A DNA stretch of 64,000 nt from Escherichia coli (GTDB lineage: Bacteria; Pseudomonadota; Gammaproteobacteria; Enterobacterales; Enterobacteriaceae). Positions 4,475-52,674 of the stretch are shown here, in pieces. The position numbers and the translations under genes are program-made. Below the pieces are notes generated by a model. That model did no database searches and was not told where the DNA came from. It worked only from the letters and a program-made list of their open reading frames with translations. Each line of letters begins with the position of its first letter. The stretch's first letter is position 1. The stretch lies in NCBI RefSeq assembly GCF_044324875.1, contig NZ_CP172185.1. One strand, 5' to 3'.

Positions 4475-5326
4475 TTACTTAACCAACCGATGCCCCTCAT
4501 TCATCATCAGGATTTTGCTATACACATCTTCCTCGACGGCGTTTTTTGCTGATGCCATCACTCGTGCCAGATTCGCCTCGTTGTGATTATTCACATACGC
4601 TTTGCCGACGGCGGTGATAAACGCTTTGCGCAGATCGCTGGCGATATTTACTTTAGCGACGCGATAATTAACAAAGCTGCGTAATATTTCCGGGGCGATA
4701 CCGGAGCCGCCGTGAATAACCAGCGGCACCGGGCAGACTTCGGCAATGCGCTTCAGCAGGGGGATATCGATACGCGGTATATCGTCCAGGCCATGAACGT
4801 TGCCAATAGAAACTGCCAGCATGTCGCAACCGGTGCGCTCGACAAAGGTCTTCACCTTTTCCGGTTCCGTTTTGCAATCGGCTTCGCTGACGTGATCATC
4901 TTCTTTGCCGAGAATCGCCCCCAGCTCCGCTTCAACCGGTACGCCATAGGATTTACAGAAATCGACAGCTTCCTGGGTGAAAGCGATATTCTCTTCAAAA
5001 GATAATGCGGCACCGTCAATCATGACCGAGGTAAAGCCCGCGCGCACCGCCTGTTTAACATCCTCCTGAGTTTTCCCGTGATCCAGATGAAGACTGACCG
5101 GAACATCCATTTTATCGGCGTGACGTTTCACGATTTCATAAATGTAATCGTATCCCGAGAGTTGTGCATTGGTGGGCGCAATCTGAATGAAGTTGGGTAA
5201 TCCTGAACGCTCAATGGCGTTTAAAATTGAAATCGTCGTCTCCAGATTGGTGGTATTAAACGCGCCCGCTAATACCCGTTTTTCCTGAATGCGGTCGAGC
5301 AGTATCCGTCCATTAACTAATGGCAT
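4475..5326 (-). CDS. Class II ketose-bisphosphate aldolase (FbaA/GatY/KbaY family)
   Basis: 283-aa ORF with class II aldolase hallmarks: metal-binding His-containing motifs (LHLDHG, VIHGGSG) and an N-terminus typical of tagatose/fructose bisphosphate aldolases. Confidence 0.8.
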   Translation of the reverse strand: MPLVNGRILLDRIQEKRVLAGAFNTTNLETTISILNAIERSGLPNFIQIAPTNAQLSGYDYIYEIVKRHADKMDVPVSLHLDHGKTQEDVKQAVRAGFTSVMIDGAALSFEENIAFTQEAVDFCKSYGVPVEAELGAILGKEDDHVSEADCKTEPEKVKTFVERTGCDMLAVSIGNVHGLDDIPRIDIPLLKRIAEVCPVPLVIHGGSGIAPEILRSFVNYRVAKVNIASDLRKAFITAVGKAYVNNHNEANLARVMASAKNAVEEDVYSKILMMNEGHRLVK

Positions 5327-5356
5327 TTGAAAACCTCATCTTTTAATATCAGTTAA

Positions 5357-5626
5357 TTATTCAGCTTCACCGAAGCGATCACGAAATAAGGCGGTGAGAG
5401 TTTGTATTGCCTCATTTTCATCATCGCCTTCGCAGCGTATTTCCACCGTTTTGCCGCCTTTTATTCCGGCGCGCATAATATTCATCATGCTGGTGGCATT
5501 AATATCATTACCCTCATAATGCAGCGTCACTTTACAGCTAAACTTTTTGGCGGCTTTCACCAGACACGCCGCCGGACGTGCATGCAGGCCAGTACTGTTT
5601 CTGACCTCCACGGTTTTACTCAACAT
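5357..5626 (-). CDS. HPr-family phosphocarrier protein (PTS paralogue)
   Basis: 89-aa ORF with the HPr active-site context NSTGLHARPAA (phosphorylatable His) and HPr-like size. Confidence 0.8.
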   Translation of the reverse strand: MLSKTVEVRNSTGLHARPAACLVKAAKKFSCKVTLHYEGNDINATSMMNIMRAGIKGGKTVEIRCEGDDENEAIQTLTALFRDRFGEAE

Positions 5627-7124
5627 AGTGCTCCTCCCGATGGTGTAATGGCATCACGCCTTCTTGCTGTAATTTCAACTGATACCAGCTTTTCCATTTG
5701 TGCTGATAACGCTGTAATTGATGGTATCTCGCCCGATTCGGTAACAAACGTTGGGCTATGGTAACTTGCGGCGGTGGAATATCCGGTGCGGCAGTTAATA
5801 ATGCTCCGACAGAAACCGCCTCGTTAAATGCAATTGCTTCAACCGGACGCTGTAAAATATCCGCTTTTAATTGCAGCCAAAGGGGATTTTGGGTTGCCGG
5901 ACCTATCACTTTTAACGCGCTGGTGCCAGGCACATTAAAACAGGCGAAGCAGTTGGCAAATTCCATGGTTAATCCCAGTGAGACGCTGGCAATTAACATG
6001 TCGATATTTAACGTATCGCCAAGCCCATAAAATAATCCACGAGTATGGCGATTTTTATAGGGCGAACCCGAACCGCGAAGATGTGGAATAAAGAGGGGAA
6101 TGTCATCGAGCGACCAGTTCCCCGCCAGGTAATCCGCATGTCCGCGAGTAAGTGATGCGGCGATCTCCTCATCGGTTAGCCGGAACGTGTTACGCAGCCA
6201 CTCCAGAGCGAAACCGCCCACGGGCAGCGACGCAAACAGGGTGAACTGGTTTGCAAGCGAATAACAGCCGTTTGCCAGCTTGTCACGTTTGGCCTGTTCA
6301 TCCAGCGTCGGTTGTGTATCCAGTTGCAGAATGCCTTCTGTGGTCCCCGTCGAGTTAAGGATATCGCCCGGCATCATCTGCAACGCTCGCGCACCCACCA
6401 TATGGTCATGTCCGGCCAGCGTCACGCTGACCGGTTGCGAGAACCCAAGCGTTTTGCAGAGCGACTCGCTGACCCATCCGGCGTGTTCGCCTGGCTGCAC
6501 CAATGGCGCAAATGCTGAACAGGGAACGTGTAACAACGCCGCCGCTTTCGCTGACCATTCGCCTTTGCGCACGTCAAGACACAGCGTGCGGCTGGCTAAG
6601 GTGATATCCGTGCGCTGTTCGCCGGTCAGCCGCCAGAGCAGTACTTCCGGCGCATGTAGCCAACGCAGGCCGCGGCGATTACGCAGTGGGTAATGTTCCA
6701 GCAACCAACGCATTTTGAAGGCAGAGTAATTGCTGTGCAGCGGTAACCCGCAAATGTCATAAAGTGCCGCACTGTCTGCCTCGCTAAGTGTTGCCAGATA
6801 CTCTTCACCGCGACGGTCATACCATGCCAGCATTGGCGTCAGGATCTCGCCATGCTCGTCAAGGAACACGCCTGACTCGCCAAAACTGGCAATGCTTATC
6901 CGCCTGACTGGCAGCGGCGAAGCGGCGTTCAGTTGCGCTATCGCCTGGCGGACCTCCTGCCAGAGGGCGTCGATATCGAAATCGACATTGCCCTGTGGGG
7001 AGATCTGTTTTGCCGTCACGAATTTATGCGCGCCCAACGTCGTTGCGTCCAGGCAGGAAAAGCAGGTGACTTTGCAATTGGTGGTGCCAATATCGATAAC
7101 GATAGCTGCGCTGTTATCAGGCAT
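5616..7124 (-). CDS. FGGY-family carbohydrate kinase
   Basis: 502-aa ORF; N-terminal DIGTTNCK nucleotide-binding motif and internal GHDH and GTTEG motifs typical of the glycerol/xylulose/fuculose kinase superfamily. Confidence 0.8.
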   Translation of the reverse strand: MPDNSAAIVIDIGTTNCKVTCFSCLDATTLGAHKFVTAKQISPQGNVDFDIDALWQEVRQAIAQLNAASPLPVRRISIASFGESGVFLDEHGEILTPMLAWYDRRGEEYLATLSEADSAALYDICGLPLHSNYSAFKMRWLLEHYPLRNRRGLRWLHAPEVLLWRLTGEQRTDITLASRTLCLDVRKGEWSAKAAALLHVPCSAFAPLVQPGEHAGWVSESLCKTLGFSQPVSVTLAGHDHMVGARALQMMPGDILNSTGTTEGILQLDTQPTLDEQAKRDKLANGCYSLANQFTLFASLPVGGFALEWLRNTFRLTDEEIAASLTRGHADYLAGNWSLDDIPLFIPHLRGSGSPYKNRHTRGLFYGLGDTLNIDMLIASVSLGLTMEFANCFACFNVPGTSALKVIGPATQNPLWLQLKADILQRPVEAIAFNEAVSVGALLTAAPDIPPPQVTIAQRLLPNRARYHQLQRYQHKWKSWYQLKLQQEGVMPLHHREEHYVE

Positions 7125-8475
7125 AAACCGTGCTCCGCGTCATTCGGAAAATACCATACAGTACCAGGGCGATAACCGGCACCAGACCAATGGCGATGAG
7201 ATTGCCGTTGAAGATTTCCAGCAGCCAGAAGCGGAACGGGTTACCGCCATCAAGGAAACTGGAGACCTGGCCGCTGGAGCCTTCGGCAAATTTGAAATTA
7301 ACGTCTTTCGCCATTCCGGTAATAAACGGCGCGATTTTAGTCGCAATCCACAGATCGGCAATAATCACCGGAATCGCCGCCAGAACGGTGCGGAAAATGT
7401 TGCCACGGCTGGCTAAAGCAATCATCGACGCCATTACCGCCAGGTTGGCAAGGTCGCCAAGCGGCAGGACTTCATTACCCGGAAGGACAAACGCGATAAA
7501 GACCGAGATTGGCGTCAGCAGCAGGGCGGTGGAGATAATCGCTGGGTTACCTACGGCAACGGCGATATCCAGGCCGATATAGAGATCGTCACGGTCAGGG
7601 TATTTGGCATTGAGATACTTTTTAATGGCTTCAGACAGCGGTAATAAACCTTCCATCAGAATGCGAACCATGCGTGGCAGGATGAACATCACACCGCCAA
7701 TGCTGATGCCAAGCAGCAAGACTTTTTTGAAATCGTATCCGGCAATTACGCCGAGCAGAATGCCCAGAATAGTACCAACCATCATCGGTTCGCCGAATAT
7801 GCCAAACTTTTTCTGTACGGTTTCCGGATCGATATGAATACGATTGAGGCCGGGGATATGGTCGATGATTTTGTCGACCAACAGACCGACCGGAAAGAAC
7901 ACCACCGAAGAGAGCGTCGGCAAAGAGATCCCTTCCAGGCCAAAGTATTTTTGTACCAGTGGCGCAGACCAGTCGGCGAGTTTAAGTACTACCACCGCAG
8001 CAATCGCCGCTGCCAGCAAACCAAAGAACAGGCTGCCGGTGCTGTAATAAACCAGCGTACCGGCAAGGGCAAAATGCCAGTAGTTCCACATATCTACGTC
8101 AACGGTGCGGGTTTTATTTAACGCCAGCATCGCCACGTTAATCAGAATAGTCAGGGGAATAACAAACGGGGCAATTGGCGAACCCCATGTAATAGCGGAA
8201 AGCGGCGGCCAGCCTAAATCCACCACCGGTAAATTAATTCCGGTGCGTTCAACCATCGCCTGGGCCGCTGGCCCGACATTGCTGGTAAGAATATCGAAAA
8301 TGGCATAAATACCGACAAAACCAATGCCGACCGTTAATGACGAACGTAAGGCTTTAGCGGGTTTTACTTTAAAAAAGAGAGCAAGAATAAATAACACCAA
8401 CGGCAACATTACCGTGGGACCAAATCCCAATATATATTGCACAATATTATAGAGGGTATGCGCGATATCGTTCAT
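7117..8475 (-). CDS. PTS EIIC permease, galactitol (Gat) family
   Basis: Polytopic membrane protein of about 452 aa, GatC/SgcC-like. Start chosen at the ATG at 8475, preceded by AAGAGG 7 nt upstream; the ORF-track start at 8505 lacks a ribosome-binding site. Confidence 0.8.
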   Translation of the reverse strand: MNDIAHTLYNIVQYILGFGPTVMLPLVLFILALFFKVKPAKALRSSLTVGIGFVGIYAIFDILTSNVGPAAQAMVERTGINLPVVDLGWPPLSAITWGSPIAPFVIPLTILINVAMLALNKTRTVDVDMWNYWHFALAGTLVYYSTGSLFFGLLAAAIAAVVVLKLADWSAPLVQKYFGLEGISLPTLSSVVFFPVGLLVDKIIDHIPGLNRIHIDPETVQKKFGIFGEPMMVGTILGILLGVIAGYDFKKVLLLGISIGGVMFILPRMVRILMEGLLPLSEAIKKYLNAKYPDRDDLYIGLDIAVAVGNPAIISTALLLTPISVFIAFVLPGNEVLPLGDLANLAVMASMIALASRGNIFRTVLAAIPVIIADLWIATKIAPFITGMAKDVNFKFAEGSSGQVSSFLDGGNPFRFWLLEIFNGNLIAIGLVPVIALVLYGIFRMTRSTVYA

Positions 8476-8551
8476 AATAAACCTCTTTTTCAGGCGAGAG
8501 CGCACCTCGCGTTAGCGCCTGATGGAGTGGGTTGAAATTAATTATTATTAA

Positions 8552-8833
8552 TTACTTTTTAAGGATCGAAACAATTTGCGCCAGTACTTTCTCTTCGCCA
8601 ATACCGGTAATAATCGGCAAGCCGTTAACCACCGGGACGTCGAGTTCATAAGGCACTTTAGTCGTTGAGACTACCAGTGCTACGCCGTCAGTATTTCCAG
8701 GTAAAGAGGCAACGTTGGTTTGGGAATAATTGACGTTAAGACCGTGCTCTTTACAATATTCCATGACTTTTTCTGTTACCGCCGTGGATGTGGCAATACC
8801 CGTGGCGCAGACAAATAAAATGGTTTGACTCAT
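8552..8833 (-). CDS. PTS EIIB component (galactitol-type, Cys phosphorylation site)
   Basis: 93-aa ORF beginning MSQTILFVCATGIATS, the conserved N-terminal Cys motif of GatB-type EIIB. Confidence 0.8.
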   Translation of the reverse strand: MSQTILFVCATGIATSTAVTEKVMEYCKEHGLNVNYSQTNVASLPGNTDGVALVVSTTKVPYELDVPVVNGLPIITGIGEEKVLAQIVSILKK

Positions 8834-9303
8834 ATTTCACCTCGTTCTTTCATTTTGTTTAAGATTACTGTGTGTATTTCTGTTGTTTCCATCGTAAGCA
8901 GGGCGCGCATAAAGGGCGTATCCTGAATCATCTCCATAATCCAGCCCAGGGCATTTAATTGTTTATTACTTTCACTTAAGGCGAGCAAAAAAATCACCCT
9001 GACATGTACGGGGTCAGGATCGCCGCCCATATCGGCAAACTCTACCGGTTCCGGAAGGATGCCGACGGCAATTGCATTGTGCCTGACATATTTATGGTCC
9101 GTGTGCGGAATGGCGACGCACGGTGGTTCGGTAGGCAGCCCCGTTGGGTACGTCGCCTCACGTTTCAGTACGTGATCGGCAAAATCAGGGACCACCAGCT
9201 CAGCAGCAACCAACGGTTGCGCTAACTGACGGATGATCTGTTCAACGCTTAACCCTGCCGGAAGTCGTTGAATATAATTTTCCTGAAACTGTATGCCTTG
9301 CAT
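8830..9303 (-). CDS. PTS EIIA component (fructose/mannitol-type EIIA-2 fold)
   Basis: About 157 aa; start at the ATG at 9303, preceded by GAGGAA; contains the conserved His region (AIPHTDHKYV). Stop overlaps the EIIB start. Confidence 0.75.
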   Translation of the reverse strand: MQGIQFQENYIQRLPAGLSVEQIIRQLAQPLVAAELVVPDFADHVLKREATYPTGLPTEPPCVAIPHTDHKYVRHNAIAVGILPEPVEFADMGGDPDPVHVRVIFLLALSESNKQLNALGWIMEMIQDTPFMRALLTMETTEIHTVILNKMKERGEI

Positions 9304-9327
9304 TTTATTCCTCATAAAAAAGTGTAT

Positions 9328-10074
9328 TTAACTCAATTCCCGCCGTTGCAGCACGGTGCCCAGATAATATTTATTTCCTTTTAACCAGACGTTGCCAAAC
9401 TCAACGGGTAACTCTCGGGAGAAAAAGACTAATTGCTCCAGATGCAAAACGGGTGCATCTTCACAGATATCTAAAAAATGACCGCGTTCATTACCAATTA
9501 ATCGCGCGGCATAGCGACTTTCCGAGTAACGAATTTTTCTTTTCGACAAACTTTCTATTGTTGGAAATAAATTGTGTTGATTAAAATCGATTTCCACGAT
9601 GCCGGGGCATAGCTCAATATTGATACGGTTCTCTATCAGCATCGCTTTTTCATCACCAATTGAACGTAAACGCTCAAGGTAAAGAATATCCTGACCGGGC
9701 GTTATTCTTAATTTCTCTGCCACATAACGATTAGCCGGTTCAATCCGTGACGTAATAACTTCAGTGGTAAAGTGTATTTTCTGGCTTTCCAGCGATTCCG
9801 CGAATGACAATAATCCTTCACCTAACGGATATGCCACGTTCTCTTTTTTGACAAATGTTCCCTTCCCCTGGACCTGAATCAACACGCCTTGTTTTACCAG
9901 TTGGGCGACAGCTTTTTTAACGGTTCCCCGACTCACTTCCAGCATATCCATAATCTGGTATTCCGAAGGAATGCGATCGTCTTCCACCAGATCCCCGGTA
10001 TAAATATTTTCTCTTATCCACTCCACCACTTGTTGATAGAGCGGTATTTGTGACGACTTACTCAATGATTTCAT
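9328..10074 (-). CDS. GntR/HutC-family transcriptional regulator (winged-HTH plus UTRA effector domain)
   Basis: N-terminal GntR HTH signature (IPSEYQIMDMLEVSRGTVKKAVAQLVKQGVL) and a C-terminal UTRA-like domain; ATG at 10074 is preferred over the GTG at 10083. Confidence 0.8.
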   Translation of the reverse strand: MKSLSKSSQIPLYQQVVEWIRENIYTGDLVEDDRIPSEYQIMDMLEVSRGTVKKAVAQLVKQGVLIQVQGKGTFVKKENVAYPLGEGLLSFAESLESQKIHFTTEVITSRIEPANRYVAEKLRITPGQDILYLERLRSIGDEKAMLIENRINIELCPGIVEIDFNQHNLFPTIESLSKRKIRYSESRYAARLIGNERGHFLDICEDAPVLHLEQLVFFSRELPVEFGNVWLKGNKYYLGTVLQRRELS

Positions 10075-10096
10075 GGCGCGCACCTGAACATTTACA

Positions 10097-10122
10097 GTTG
10101 TCTATGGACAATCATGGACAAC
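10097..10122. promoter_or_regulatory. Candidate operator: inverted repeat GTTGTC...GACAAC containing the palindrome TTGTC-TATG-GACAA and a direct repeat of ATGGACAA
   Basis: Read directly from the sequence, 23 bp upstream of the HutC-family regulator start; HutC-type operators are commonly GT/AC-containing palindromes. Confidence 0.3.
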
Positions 10123-10272
10123 TTCAAGCGTATAGTAGGTGAACAGGCGAAAAAGAGGATCGAAGCGTCTCACATTTTAGGGGACTAAATCGTGATCAAA
10201 AAAATGTGACGTGAGTCGATATTTGGCAGAAGTCTACTGCGCCGTCAGGAAATAACGGCGCGTTGGGAGGTG

Positions 10273-13075
<2,803 letters not shown>

Positions 13076-51960: not shown

Positions 51961-52674
51961 ATGGAAAAAGTCATGTTGTCCTTTGACAAAGTCAGCGCCC
52001 ACTACGGCAAAATCCAGGCGCTGCATGAGGTGAGCCTGCATATCAATCAGGGCGAGATTGTCACCCTTATTGGCGCGAACGGGGCGGGGAAAACCACCTT
52101 GCTCGGCACATTATGCGGCGACCCGCGCGCCACCAGCGGGCGAATTGTGTTTGATGATAAAGACATTACCGACTGGCAGACGGCGAAAATCATGCGCGAA
52201 GCGGTGGCGATTGTCCCGGAAGGGCGTCGTGTTTTCTCGCGGATGACGGTGGAAGAGAACCTGGCGATGGGCGGTTTTTTTGCTGAACGTGACCAGTTCC
52301 AGGAACGCATAAAGTGGGTGTATGAACTGTTTCCGCGTCTCCATGAACGCCGTGTTCAGCGGGCGGGCACCATGTCCGGCGGTGAGCAGCAGATGCTGGC
52401 GATTGGTCGCGCGCTGATGAGCAACCCGCGTTTATTGTTGCTTGATGAGCCATCGCTCGGTCTTGCGCCGATTATCATCCAGCAAATTTTCGACACCATC
52501 GAGCAGCTGCGTGAGCAGGGGATGACCATCTTCCTCGTCGAGCAGAACGCCAACCAGGCGCTAAAGCTGGCGGATCGCGGCTACGTGCTGGAAAACGGTC
52601 ATGTAGTGCTCTCCGATACCGGCGACGCGCTGCTGGCGAATGAAGCGGTGAGAAGTGCGTATTTAGGCGGGTAA
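51961..52674 (+). CDS. livF: Branched-chain amino acid ABC transporter ATP-binding protein LivF
   Basis: 237-aa product starting MEKVMLSFDK; Walker A GANGAGKTT and signature MSGGEQQM. Confidence 0.9.
   Translation: MEKVMLSFDKVSAHYGKIQALHEVSLHINQGEIVTLIGANGAGKTTLLGTLCGDPRATSGRIVFDDKDITDWQTAKIMREAVAIVPEGRRVFSRMTVEENLAMGGFFAERDQFQERIKWVYELFPRLHERRVQRAGTMSGGEQQMLAIGRALMSNPRLLLLDEPSLGLAPIIIQQIFDTIEQLREQGMTIFLVEQNANQALKLADRGYVLENGHVVLSDTGDALLANEAVRSAYLGG

Follow-up and report, generated by a model that had tools for sequence, protein, structure and literature searches.

Putative Operator of the HutC-Family Regulator

A 28-bp element (positions 10096–10123) found in the window (the whole 64-kb stretch of Escherichia coli DNA analyzed here) is very likely the operator of a HutC-family repressor, which is encoded by the gene located immediately downstream (9328–10074). 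The element consists of three TTGTCyAT boxes with 10-bp phasing, of which two are direct and one is inverted (Table 1). Conservation of the element within E. coli, its presence in homologous loci of other Enterobacterales and Firmicutes, and its position relative to the promoter were particularly analyzed.

The initial annotation had described a motif at 10097–10122, carrying the palindrome TTGTC-TATG-GACAA and a tandem repeat, 23 bp from the regulator start. The coordinates proved correct: GTTGTCTATGGACAATCATGGACAAC occupies 10097–10122, its nearest base lies 23 nt upstream of the regulator ATG (10074), and the palindrome is found within it at 10098–10111. Two copies of ATGGACAA were indeed present in GTTGTCTATGGACAATCATGGACAAC (10104–10111 and 10114–10121; direct repeat D2); their starts, however, are 10 bp apart, so they form a phased direct repeat and not a strict tandem one. 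The palindrome is real as well, but it does not make up the whole functional unit, which would comprise three phased boxes and possibly a fourth. GTTGTCTATGGACAATCATGGACAAC is nested in a longer imperfect palindrome of 28 bp, AGTTGTCTATG-N6-CATGGACAACT (inverted repeat I2), where N6 is GACAAT.

On the gene strand, the TTGT/ACAA cores of the three boxes start at 0, 10, and 20 bp, the ACAA of box 2R being the one that starts 20 bp after box 1; thus, all of them lie on one face of the helix. The second and third boxes together form the 14-bp palindrome TTGTCCATAGACAA. In the enterobacterial sites, box 1 was kept as TTG(T/A)nCAT; the sites of Firmicutes and of the metagenomic contig L055 have it in the form of TTGTnnnn units. 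Speculatively, ATGTTCAG may serve as a weak fourth box: it belongs to a block of the 5′-UTR that is conserved in the near clade (see below), and four phased units are present in Clostridium and L055. The conservation at this place could also be due to the ribosome-binding site alone.

Simple parts of the element are not unusual in the window. The 5-4-5 palindrome with no more than one mismatch gave 3 matches versus 1.7 expected, and ATGGACAA alone gave 3 matches versus 2.0 expected; the second exact match to the 5-4-5 palindrome falls within livF. In contrast, the 28-bp pattern was absent from all 100 shuffles, also when up to three mismatches were permitted. Motif matches at 51976 (livF) and 31934 (yhhT) were considered as chance ones, since they are located inside coding sequences.

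Table 1. Positions of the genes and predicted regulatory features (window coordinates; in the last three rows, coordinates of the respective loci).
Feature	Position	Strand	Remarks
Predicted complete operator	10096–10123	-	AGTTGTCCATG-ATTGTC-CATAGACAACT on the gene strand; inverted repeat, shuffles, conservation
Box 1, upstream direct-repeat half-site	10114–10121	-	TTGTCCAT on the gene strand, ATGGACAA on the + strand
Box 2L, left half of the 14-bp palindrome	10104–10111	-	TTGTCCAT on the gene strand, 10 bp after box 1
Box 2R, inverted half-site	10098–10105	+	TTGTCTAT on the + strand
Candidate weak fourth box	10084–10091	-	ATGTTCAG on the gene strand; exactly 30 bp after box 1; overlaps the Shine–Dalgarno region
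Predicted -10 hexamer	10132–10137	-	TACTAT on the gene strand; conserved CTAyyATA block
CRP-like site	10159–10174	-	TGTGAGACGCTTCGAT on the gene strand; centre at about -41.5 if the start is 10125
Distal CRP-like site	10205–10220	-	ATCGACTCACGTCACA on the gene strand; left half degenerate in Escherichia
GntR/HutC-family regulator gene	9328–10074	-	248 aa, first in the operon; Pfam, RefSeq annotation
PTS EIIA	8830–9315	-	downstream operon gene
PTS EIIB	8552–8833	-	downstream operon gene
PTS EIIC-Gat (galactitol family)	7117–8475	-	downstream operon gene
FGGY kinase	5616–7124	-	downstream operon gene
HPr-like protein	5357–5626	-	downstream operon gene
Class II ketose-bisphosphate aldolase	4475–5326	-	downstream operon gene
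Paired operators of a paralogous cluster, L044	6135–6161 and 11179–11205		
Paired operators of a paralogous cluster, L048	2909 and 7956		
Paired operators of a paralogous cluster, L058	3911 and 8953		

Regulator Gene and Operon

The regulator possesses an N-terminal GntR domain (Pfam, 1.5e-15) and a C-terminal UTRA domain (Pfam, 1.2e-25); this combination assigns it to the HutC subfamily and confirms the family label of the initial annotation. Its gene is the first of seven tightly packed genes on the minus strand, followed by those encoding IIA, IIB, IIC, an FGGY kinase, HPr, and a class II aldolase. Among NCBIfam models, no equivalog above the cut-off was found for the regulator, the PTS components, or the kinase; only the aldolase reached the cut-off. 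The effector (UTRA) domain of the regulator (residues 79–248, window 9328–9840) corresponds to PDB entry 3HFI, named ‘putative regulator’, with 169 of 170 residues identical. The closest solved full-length relatives of the regulator are NagR/YvoA. Our literature search revealed no paper characterizing the regulator, the operon, or the motif, nor one mentioning 3HFI.

No intergenic gap large enough for an obvious second promoter was present in the operon (4475–10074), and the sole sizeable non-coding stretch of the island is located at 10075–10272. Since sizeable non-coding DNA is confined to this stretch and the regulator gene is the first one, the site should control all seven genes and not the regulator gene alone. 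The island (4475–10272) is placed between yhhJ and nikR. It was found in 1637 of the 5426 complete E. coli genomes (about 30%), including those of O157:H7 and strain 042, and was always chromosomal, occupying one place per genome, except for a single genome with two. The sequence of strain 042 (NC_017626.1) matches the window with 100% identity.

A GC-rich hairpin, GCGCCGTCAGGAAATAACGGCGC, is located just past the stop codon of nikR (10240–10262). It has no T-run and was not called by the terminator scan; this hairpin is probably the nikR terminator.

Conservation in E. coli and Other Enterobacteria

The 28-bp element was invariant in all 1637 E. coli genomes with the island. The 50 bp centered on the motif were 100% identical in 1636 of these 1637 genomes, while the adjoining 50 bp upstream were at least 99% identical in only 890 genomes and 90–95% identical in 672. 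A second copy of the element was not found elsewhere in the E. coli genomes (median of one place per genome). The one genome deviating in the 50-bp segment belongs to E. coli ESDR8 (L052), where a single base pair is deleted at 10126/10127, outside the 28-bp element; the deletion shortens the spacer that separates the -10 box from the operator.

A scan of a genome collection yielded 28 enterobacterial loci, 20 of them near-clade and 8 paralogous. The element was kept in each of these loci, 45–48 nt before the start codon of the regulator. A lack of conservation in orthologous islands had been named in the initial annotation as a ground for rejecting its reading; the element was instead conserved in 1637/1637 E. 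coli genomes and 28/28 enterobacterial loci. The near-clade loci derive from Escherichia, Citrobacter, Enterobacter, Klebsiella oxytoca, Cedecea, Rahnella, Pantoea, Izhakiella, and others; their regulators share 83–98% identity, and there is hardly any difference in the operon.

The near-clade alignment included 21 upstream regions, that of the window among them, and its consensus reads AAGTTGT(A/C)CATGATTGTC(C/T)ATAGACAACT. The positions GTTGT-CAT--TTGTC-AT-GAC-AC were invariant or nearly so in the 21 regions, and the flanking promoter DNA was largely scrambled. Much of the 5′-UTR downstream of the element was equally conserved, so conservation within the near clade alone is not specific to the element. 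The block 10076–10095 of this 5′-UTR (gene strand AAATGTTCAGGTGCGCGCC) was almost invariant in the near clade and includes an ATGT located exactly 30 bp past box 1; its conservation exceeds what the Shine–Dalgarno sequence alone would require.

A perfect 14-bp palindrome, TTGTCTATAGACAA or TTGTCCATGGACAA, was present in loci L004, L005, L006, L011, L016, and L018 and in the Salmonella locus L047; the version of K. oxytoca is TTGTCCATGGACAA. In Salmonella, the regulator is 82% identical and the element reads GTTGTACATGATTGTCTATAGACAACT; the cluster of this genus may be that with the locus tags STM3780–3785.

The eight paralogous loci (Raoultella, Enterobacter, and Superficieibacter; regulator 65–70% identical) contain a cluster with added zinc dehydrogenases, where the element before the regulator gene reads CTTGTTCATACTTGTATACAGATGATC. 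In Raoultella, Klebsiella, and Pantoea, where longer contigs cover more of the paralogous cluster (regulator 65–70% identical), it is organized in two transcription units with an element before each, e.g., TTGAACATGGTTGTACATAGACAAC. The second copy precedes a separate operon IIA-IIB-IIC-kinase-dehydrogenase and reads CTTGAACATGGTTGTACATAGACAACC, which is very near the E. coli site. Within these clusters, the site before the IIA gene resembles the E. coli site more than the site before the regulator gene does.

The metagenomic contig L055 encodes a regulator with 61% identity and two Gat-type PTS clusters. The arrays preceding these two clusters comprise four phased TTGT units (1948–1987) and three such units (11251–11280), respectively, and are the longest seen in the Proteobacteria-like loci.

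Homologous Loci of Firmicutes

Homologues of the regulator with 50–58% identity to the E. coli protein were found in Firmicutes (L049, L050, L051, L056, and L057), the hosts including Enterococcus, Clostridium, Caldibacillus, and Niallia. The operon is of the same kind, encoding the regulator, aldolase, IIA, IIB, IIC, and FGGY kinase, and the upstream regions contain two to four phased 10-bp units TTGTnyATrG. In Enterococcus, the units are TTGTACATGG, TTGTCTATAG, TTGTCCATGG, and TCGTGTACAA; in Clostridium, TTGTACATAG, TTGTATATAG, ATGTCTATAG, and TTGTGTACAA; and in Caldibacillus, TTGTACATAG and TTGTCTATAT. The arrays of these three genera start right after the -10 box (TATAAT, TACAAT, or TATTAT). 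The Niallia array is flipped relative to the gene, which is more consistent with a binding site in DNA than with a signal in RNA.

A matrix of the 10-bp unit was trained on the Firmicutes sites only and used for scoring adjacent unit pairs on both strands of the 64-kb window, with the maxima of 40 Markov shuffles as the null (mean of 12.6 bits, standard deviation of 2.0, largest value of 19.3). The best score in the window, 25.3 bits, was obtained at 10102–10121 on the minus strand, and the runner-up (17.2 bits) was located within yhhT. In all 28 enterobacterial loci, the top match of this matrix was found on the gene strand 45–48 nt before the start codon of the regulator.

Across the sequences compared, the theme common to the loci is two to four TTGTnyAyrG units spaced by one helical turn, with an inverted ACAA often closing the array. 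By the same comparison, the direct repeat is the most widely conserved feature, and the palindrome is the way in which the proteobacterial arrays end. The HutC protein is the only regulator common to all enterobacterial, paralogous, and Firmicutes loci. The 50–58% identity of the Firmicutes regulators, together with the shared operon content and operator units, suggests that the whole regulated module moved horizontally between phyla.

The Enterococcus regulator was called as a protein of 264 aa, about 17 initial codons of which overlap both the ribosome-binding site and the array of operator units (L049, 8001–8052). The true start is probably a TTG near 8054–8056, located after GGAGGTG.

Predicted Promoter and CRP-Like Sites

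Consensus scanning for promoters and terminators within 9900–10400 did not call anything. The promoter was missed because its -35 region is weak, and it was deduced from cross-species conservation: a CTAyyATA block, conserved across the 21 aligned orthologues, is found 8 nt upstream of the operator and contains the predicted -10 hexamer. We infer that transcription starts near 10125, about 7 nt downstream of the -10 hexamer; this would place the operator at about +2 to +29. Relative to the regulator ATG, the element is situated 23–49 nt upstream.

Two CRP-like sites were found further upstream, and the promoter appears from these sequences to be helped by CRP. The proximal one, TGTGAGACGCTTCGAT, has three mismatches to TGTGA-N6-TCACA and is centered 45 nt before box 1, which corresponds to -41.5, the place expected for CRP at class II promoters, only with the putative start at 10125. 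Its TGTGA hardly varies within the near clade, and the sites of Klebsiella and Raoultella are better, with one mismatch. At the regulator promoters of the relatives, the centers of CRP-like sites precede box 1 by 43–46 nt; at the IIA promoters, the distance is 62–64 nt. The distal site, ATCGACTCACGTCACA, is a perfect TGTGA-N6-TCACA in locus L010 and is perfect or near-perfect in other genera.

The two CRP-like sites jointly form a 20-nt inverted repeat (I1); the distance between their centers, 46 bp, does not correspond to a whole number of helical turns. A TGATC pentamer was noted 6 nt downstream of the distal TCACA (10176–10195; gene strand TCACA-N6-TGATC) in most of the 21 near-clade orthologues.

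Proposed Mechanism and DNA Recognition

The reading of the motif as an autoregulatory operator, put forward in the initial annotation, gains support from the conservation of the element and its co-inheritance with the regulator gene, this support being comparative in kind. According to the mechanism that we propose, in the absence of an inducer the regulator would occupy the boxes, probably as two dimers, and each winged-helix domain would read one TTGT box via the recognition helix VSRGTVKKA. The bound protein would keep RNA polymerase from starting at the promoter or clearing it. Repression would silence all seven genes, including that of the regulator itself (negative autoregulation). A metabolite of the pathway, probably a sugar phosphate that the PTS and the kinase produce, would bind to the UTRA domain, and the DNA would then be released.

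The recognition helix VSRGTVKKA and the wing QGKGT were invariant or nearly so across the regulator family. In the NagR–DNA structure, Arg48 reads G-4, Arg38 reads G-5, and Gly69 of the wing reads G-7 of GTGG (PMC4333415). The corresponding Arg49 of the recognition helix and Gly70 of the wing are conserved in our regulator and invariant in the family. The equivalent of NagR Arg38 is Tyr39 in E. coli; in the relatives, this position is occupied by Asn, Phe, Lys, or His, and Arg was never found there. The base matching the Arg38 contact is T (TTGT), located 5′ of the conserved G. According to a survey of the family (PMC4494728), HutC proteins with Arg at this position prefer G/C, and those with Asn weakly prefer A/T. 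The agreement between residue and base is circumstantial evidence that the regulator reads the TTGT boxes.

The arrangement of the protein on the boxes is less certain. With the GT-N6-AC spacing, a side-by-side dimer of the NagR type may not fit, and three boxes do not split evenly among dimers. A tentative possibility, which we regard as less probable than its opposite, is that winged helices are arranged head-to-tail, one per 10-bp TTGTnyAyrG unit (2–4 per operator), with two or more dimers or a higher oligomer binding cooperatively and the terminal domain flipped. Such an array may be a mode of DNA binding structurally unseen in HutC proteins so far; if it is true, the flexible HutC linker would permit both direct-repeat and palindromic reading by one protein.

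Alternative Explanations

Four other explanations of the element were considered. The element might serve as an operator of another transcription factor, for instance, a global sugar regulator, instead of the adjacent HutC protein. The box spacing is atypical of HutC palindromes, and the site was assigned to a protein by sequence comparison. However, the motif travels with the regulator gene through Enterobacteriaceae, Erwiniaceae, and Firmicutes, where the neighborhoods are otherwise unrelated and the host regulators differ; this co-occurrence over unrelated genomic backgrounds makes binding by another factor unlikely. The TTGT half-site also fits the GT core of the GntR family and the invariant Arg of its recognition helix, and the lack of a second copy elsewhere in the E. 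coli genomes likewise speaks against a site of another protein. We therefore consider this explanation improbable, although slightly more probable than the other three.

Another improbable explanation is that the HutC-family regulator binds the site but activates the operon or acts dually. A few GntR-family proteins are activators or dual regulators, and NagR of B. thuringiensis is listed as dual. An activating role is disfavored by the location of the site downstream of the -10 box, over the putative transcription start, which is a repressor position and was found in every lineage examined; activation seemingly comes from the upstream CRP-like sites.

It is very unlikely that the inverted repeat acts after transcription as a 5′-UTR hairpin affecting mRNA stability, translation, or attenuation. 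The element is probably inside the transcript, and RNAfold predicted a stem of 11 positions with one mismatch (-12.6 kcal/mol). Nevertheless, this fold is no better than those of shuffled sequences (z = -1.13; 24 of the 200 shuffles folded as well), no Rfam match was found for the element at E <= 1, and the outer stem loses pairs without compensation in most orthologues. This hairpin cannot form from the direct repeats of the Firmicutes arrays, the array of Niallia has the opposite orientation to the gene, and the element also occurs at promoters whose UTRs are unrelated. These facts favor the DNA operator over an RNA element.

Finally, there is a negligible probability that the element is a functionless chance repeat, its small palindrome and 8-bp repeat having emerged accidentally in intergenic DNA that is AT-rich: the two parts do occur at chance frequency in the window, with further matches within the livF and yhhT coding regions, but this explanation is effectively refuted by the conservation data, since the element is invariant in 1637 genomes while the neighboring DNA varies and is found at the same promoter position across genera and phyla, and the composite 28-bp pattern has zero expectation by chance.

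Significance and Comparison with Known Operators

The predicted operator of the HutC-family repressor is a concrete regulatory switch for an uncharacterized accessory sugar operon of E. coli, Salmonella, Klebsiella, other Enterobacterales, and Firmicutes. With the operator known, the substrate could be sought by means of reporter fusions and screens for inducers, and the phased-repeat layout is a useful test case for HutC dimers reading non-canonical sites. General concepts are unchanged by this site, which is conserved from E. coli to Gram-positive bacteria; repressor operators over the promoters of PTS operons are routine. MngR is also a repressor of a PTS operon and of its own gene.

The closest well-described counterpart is the dre site of NagR (YvoA)/DasR (PDB 4WWC; PMC4333415). 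These proteins have the same build of a winged helix and a UTRA domain as our regulator, they also control a sugar PTS and catabolic operon from an operator over the promoter, and their natural sites are imperfect palindromes as well. The GT core of the half-site is shared, and so are the Arg of the recognition helix (Arg48 in NagR, Arg49 here) and the Gly of the wing. However, dre is a single palindrome of 14–16 bp, GTGGTCTAGACCAC, with GT-N4-AC, whereas the E. coli element has TTGTCyATAGACAA with GT-N6-AC and, at a phased distance of 10 bp upstream, a third box. In place of NagR Arg38, the residue contacting G-5, our regulators have Tyr or Asn, with T as the matching base, and the overall identity of the regulator to NagR is only about 26%.

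The comparisons below refer to the HutC and GntR survey of Suvorova et al. (2015, PMC4494728), the consulted sections of which make no mention of the orthologous group of our regulator. The canonical HutC palindrome given there is NyGTMTAKACNy, with GT-N4-AC; the palindrome TTGT-CCATAG-ACAA of our element is GT-N6-AC and thus departs from it. The canonical GT-N4-AC register was sought in all classes of our sites and was conserved in none of them.

Direct repeats, as found here, are reported in the same source for the HutC-family proteins FarR/MngR and NagQ (PMC4494728). In our loci, two head-to-tail TTGTCCAT units 10 bp apart were present in E. coli, and three to four units in Enterococcus, Clostridium, and L055. 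The FarR unit, TGTATTAWTT (PMC4494728), also has 10 bp and begins with TGT; compared by eye in the best register, it resembles TTGTATATAG in about 7 of 10 positions. The direct-repeat unit of the NagQ type is TGGTATT, according to the same source. Unlike the FarR and NagQ sites, the enterobacterial arrays end in an inverted box and so form a true palindrome; here, the site is a predicted one.

Weaker additional half-sites flank many palindromes of the GntR family, as described by Suvorova et al. (2015, PMC4494728), and their layout is the same as that of the palindrome and box 1 here. The boxes reported there are located 7–12 nt from the palindrome center and are weaker, whereas box 1 lies about 15 nt from it and is conserved like the palindrome halves. 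In contrast to such palindrome-flanking half-sites, direct repeats dominate in our Firmicutes loci. The SdhR operator, TCTTATGTCTTATATAAGACATAAGA, as given in the same survey (PMC4494728), shares multiple boxes and a wide GT...AC spacing with our element, and its core TGTCTTATATAAGACA resembles TGTCTATAGACA. SdhR has four symmetric boxes, two direct and two inverted, with a spacing of about 7 bp, while our element is asymmetric, with two direct boxes and one inverted box in 10-bp phasing. Taken from these sequence comparisons, the assignment of the element to the known class of HutC-family operators appears well supported, its phased-repeat architecture being somewhat unusual.
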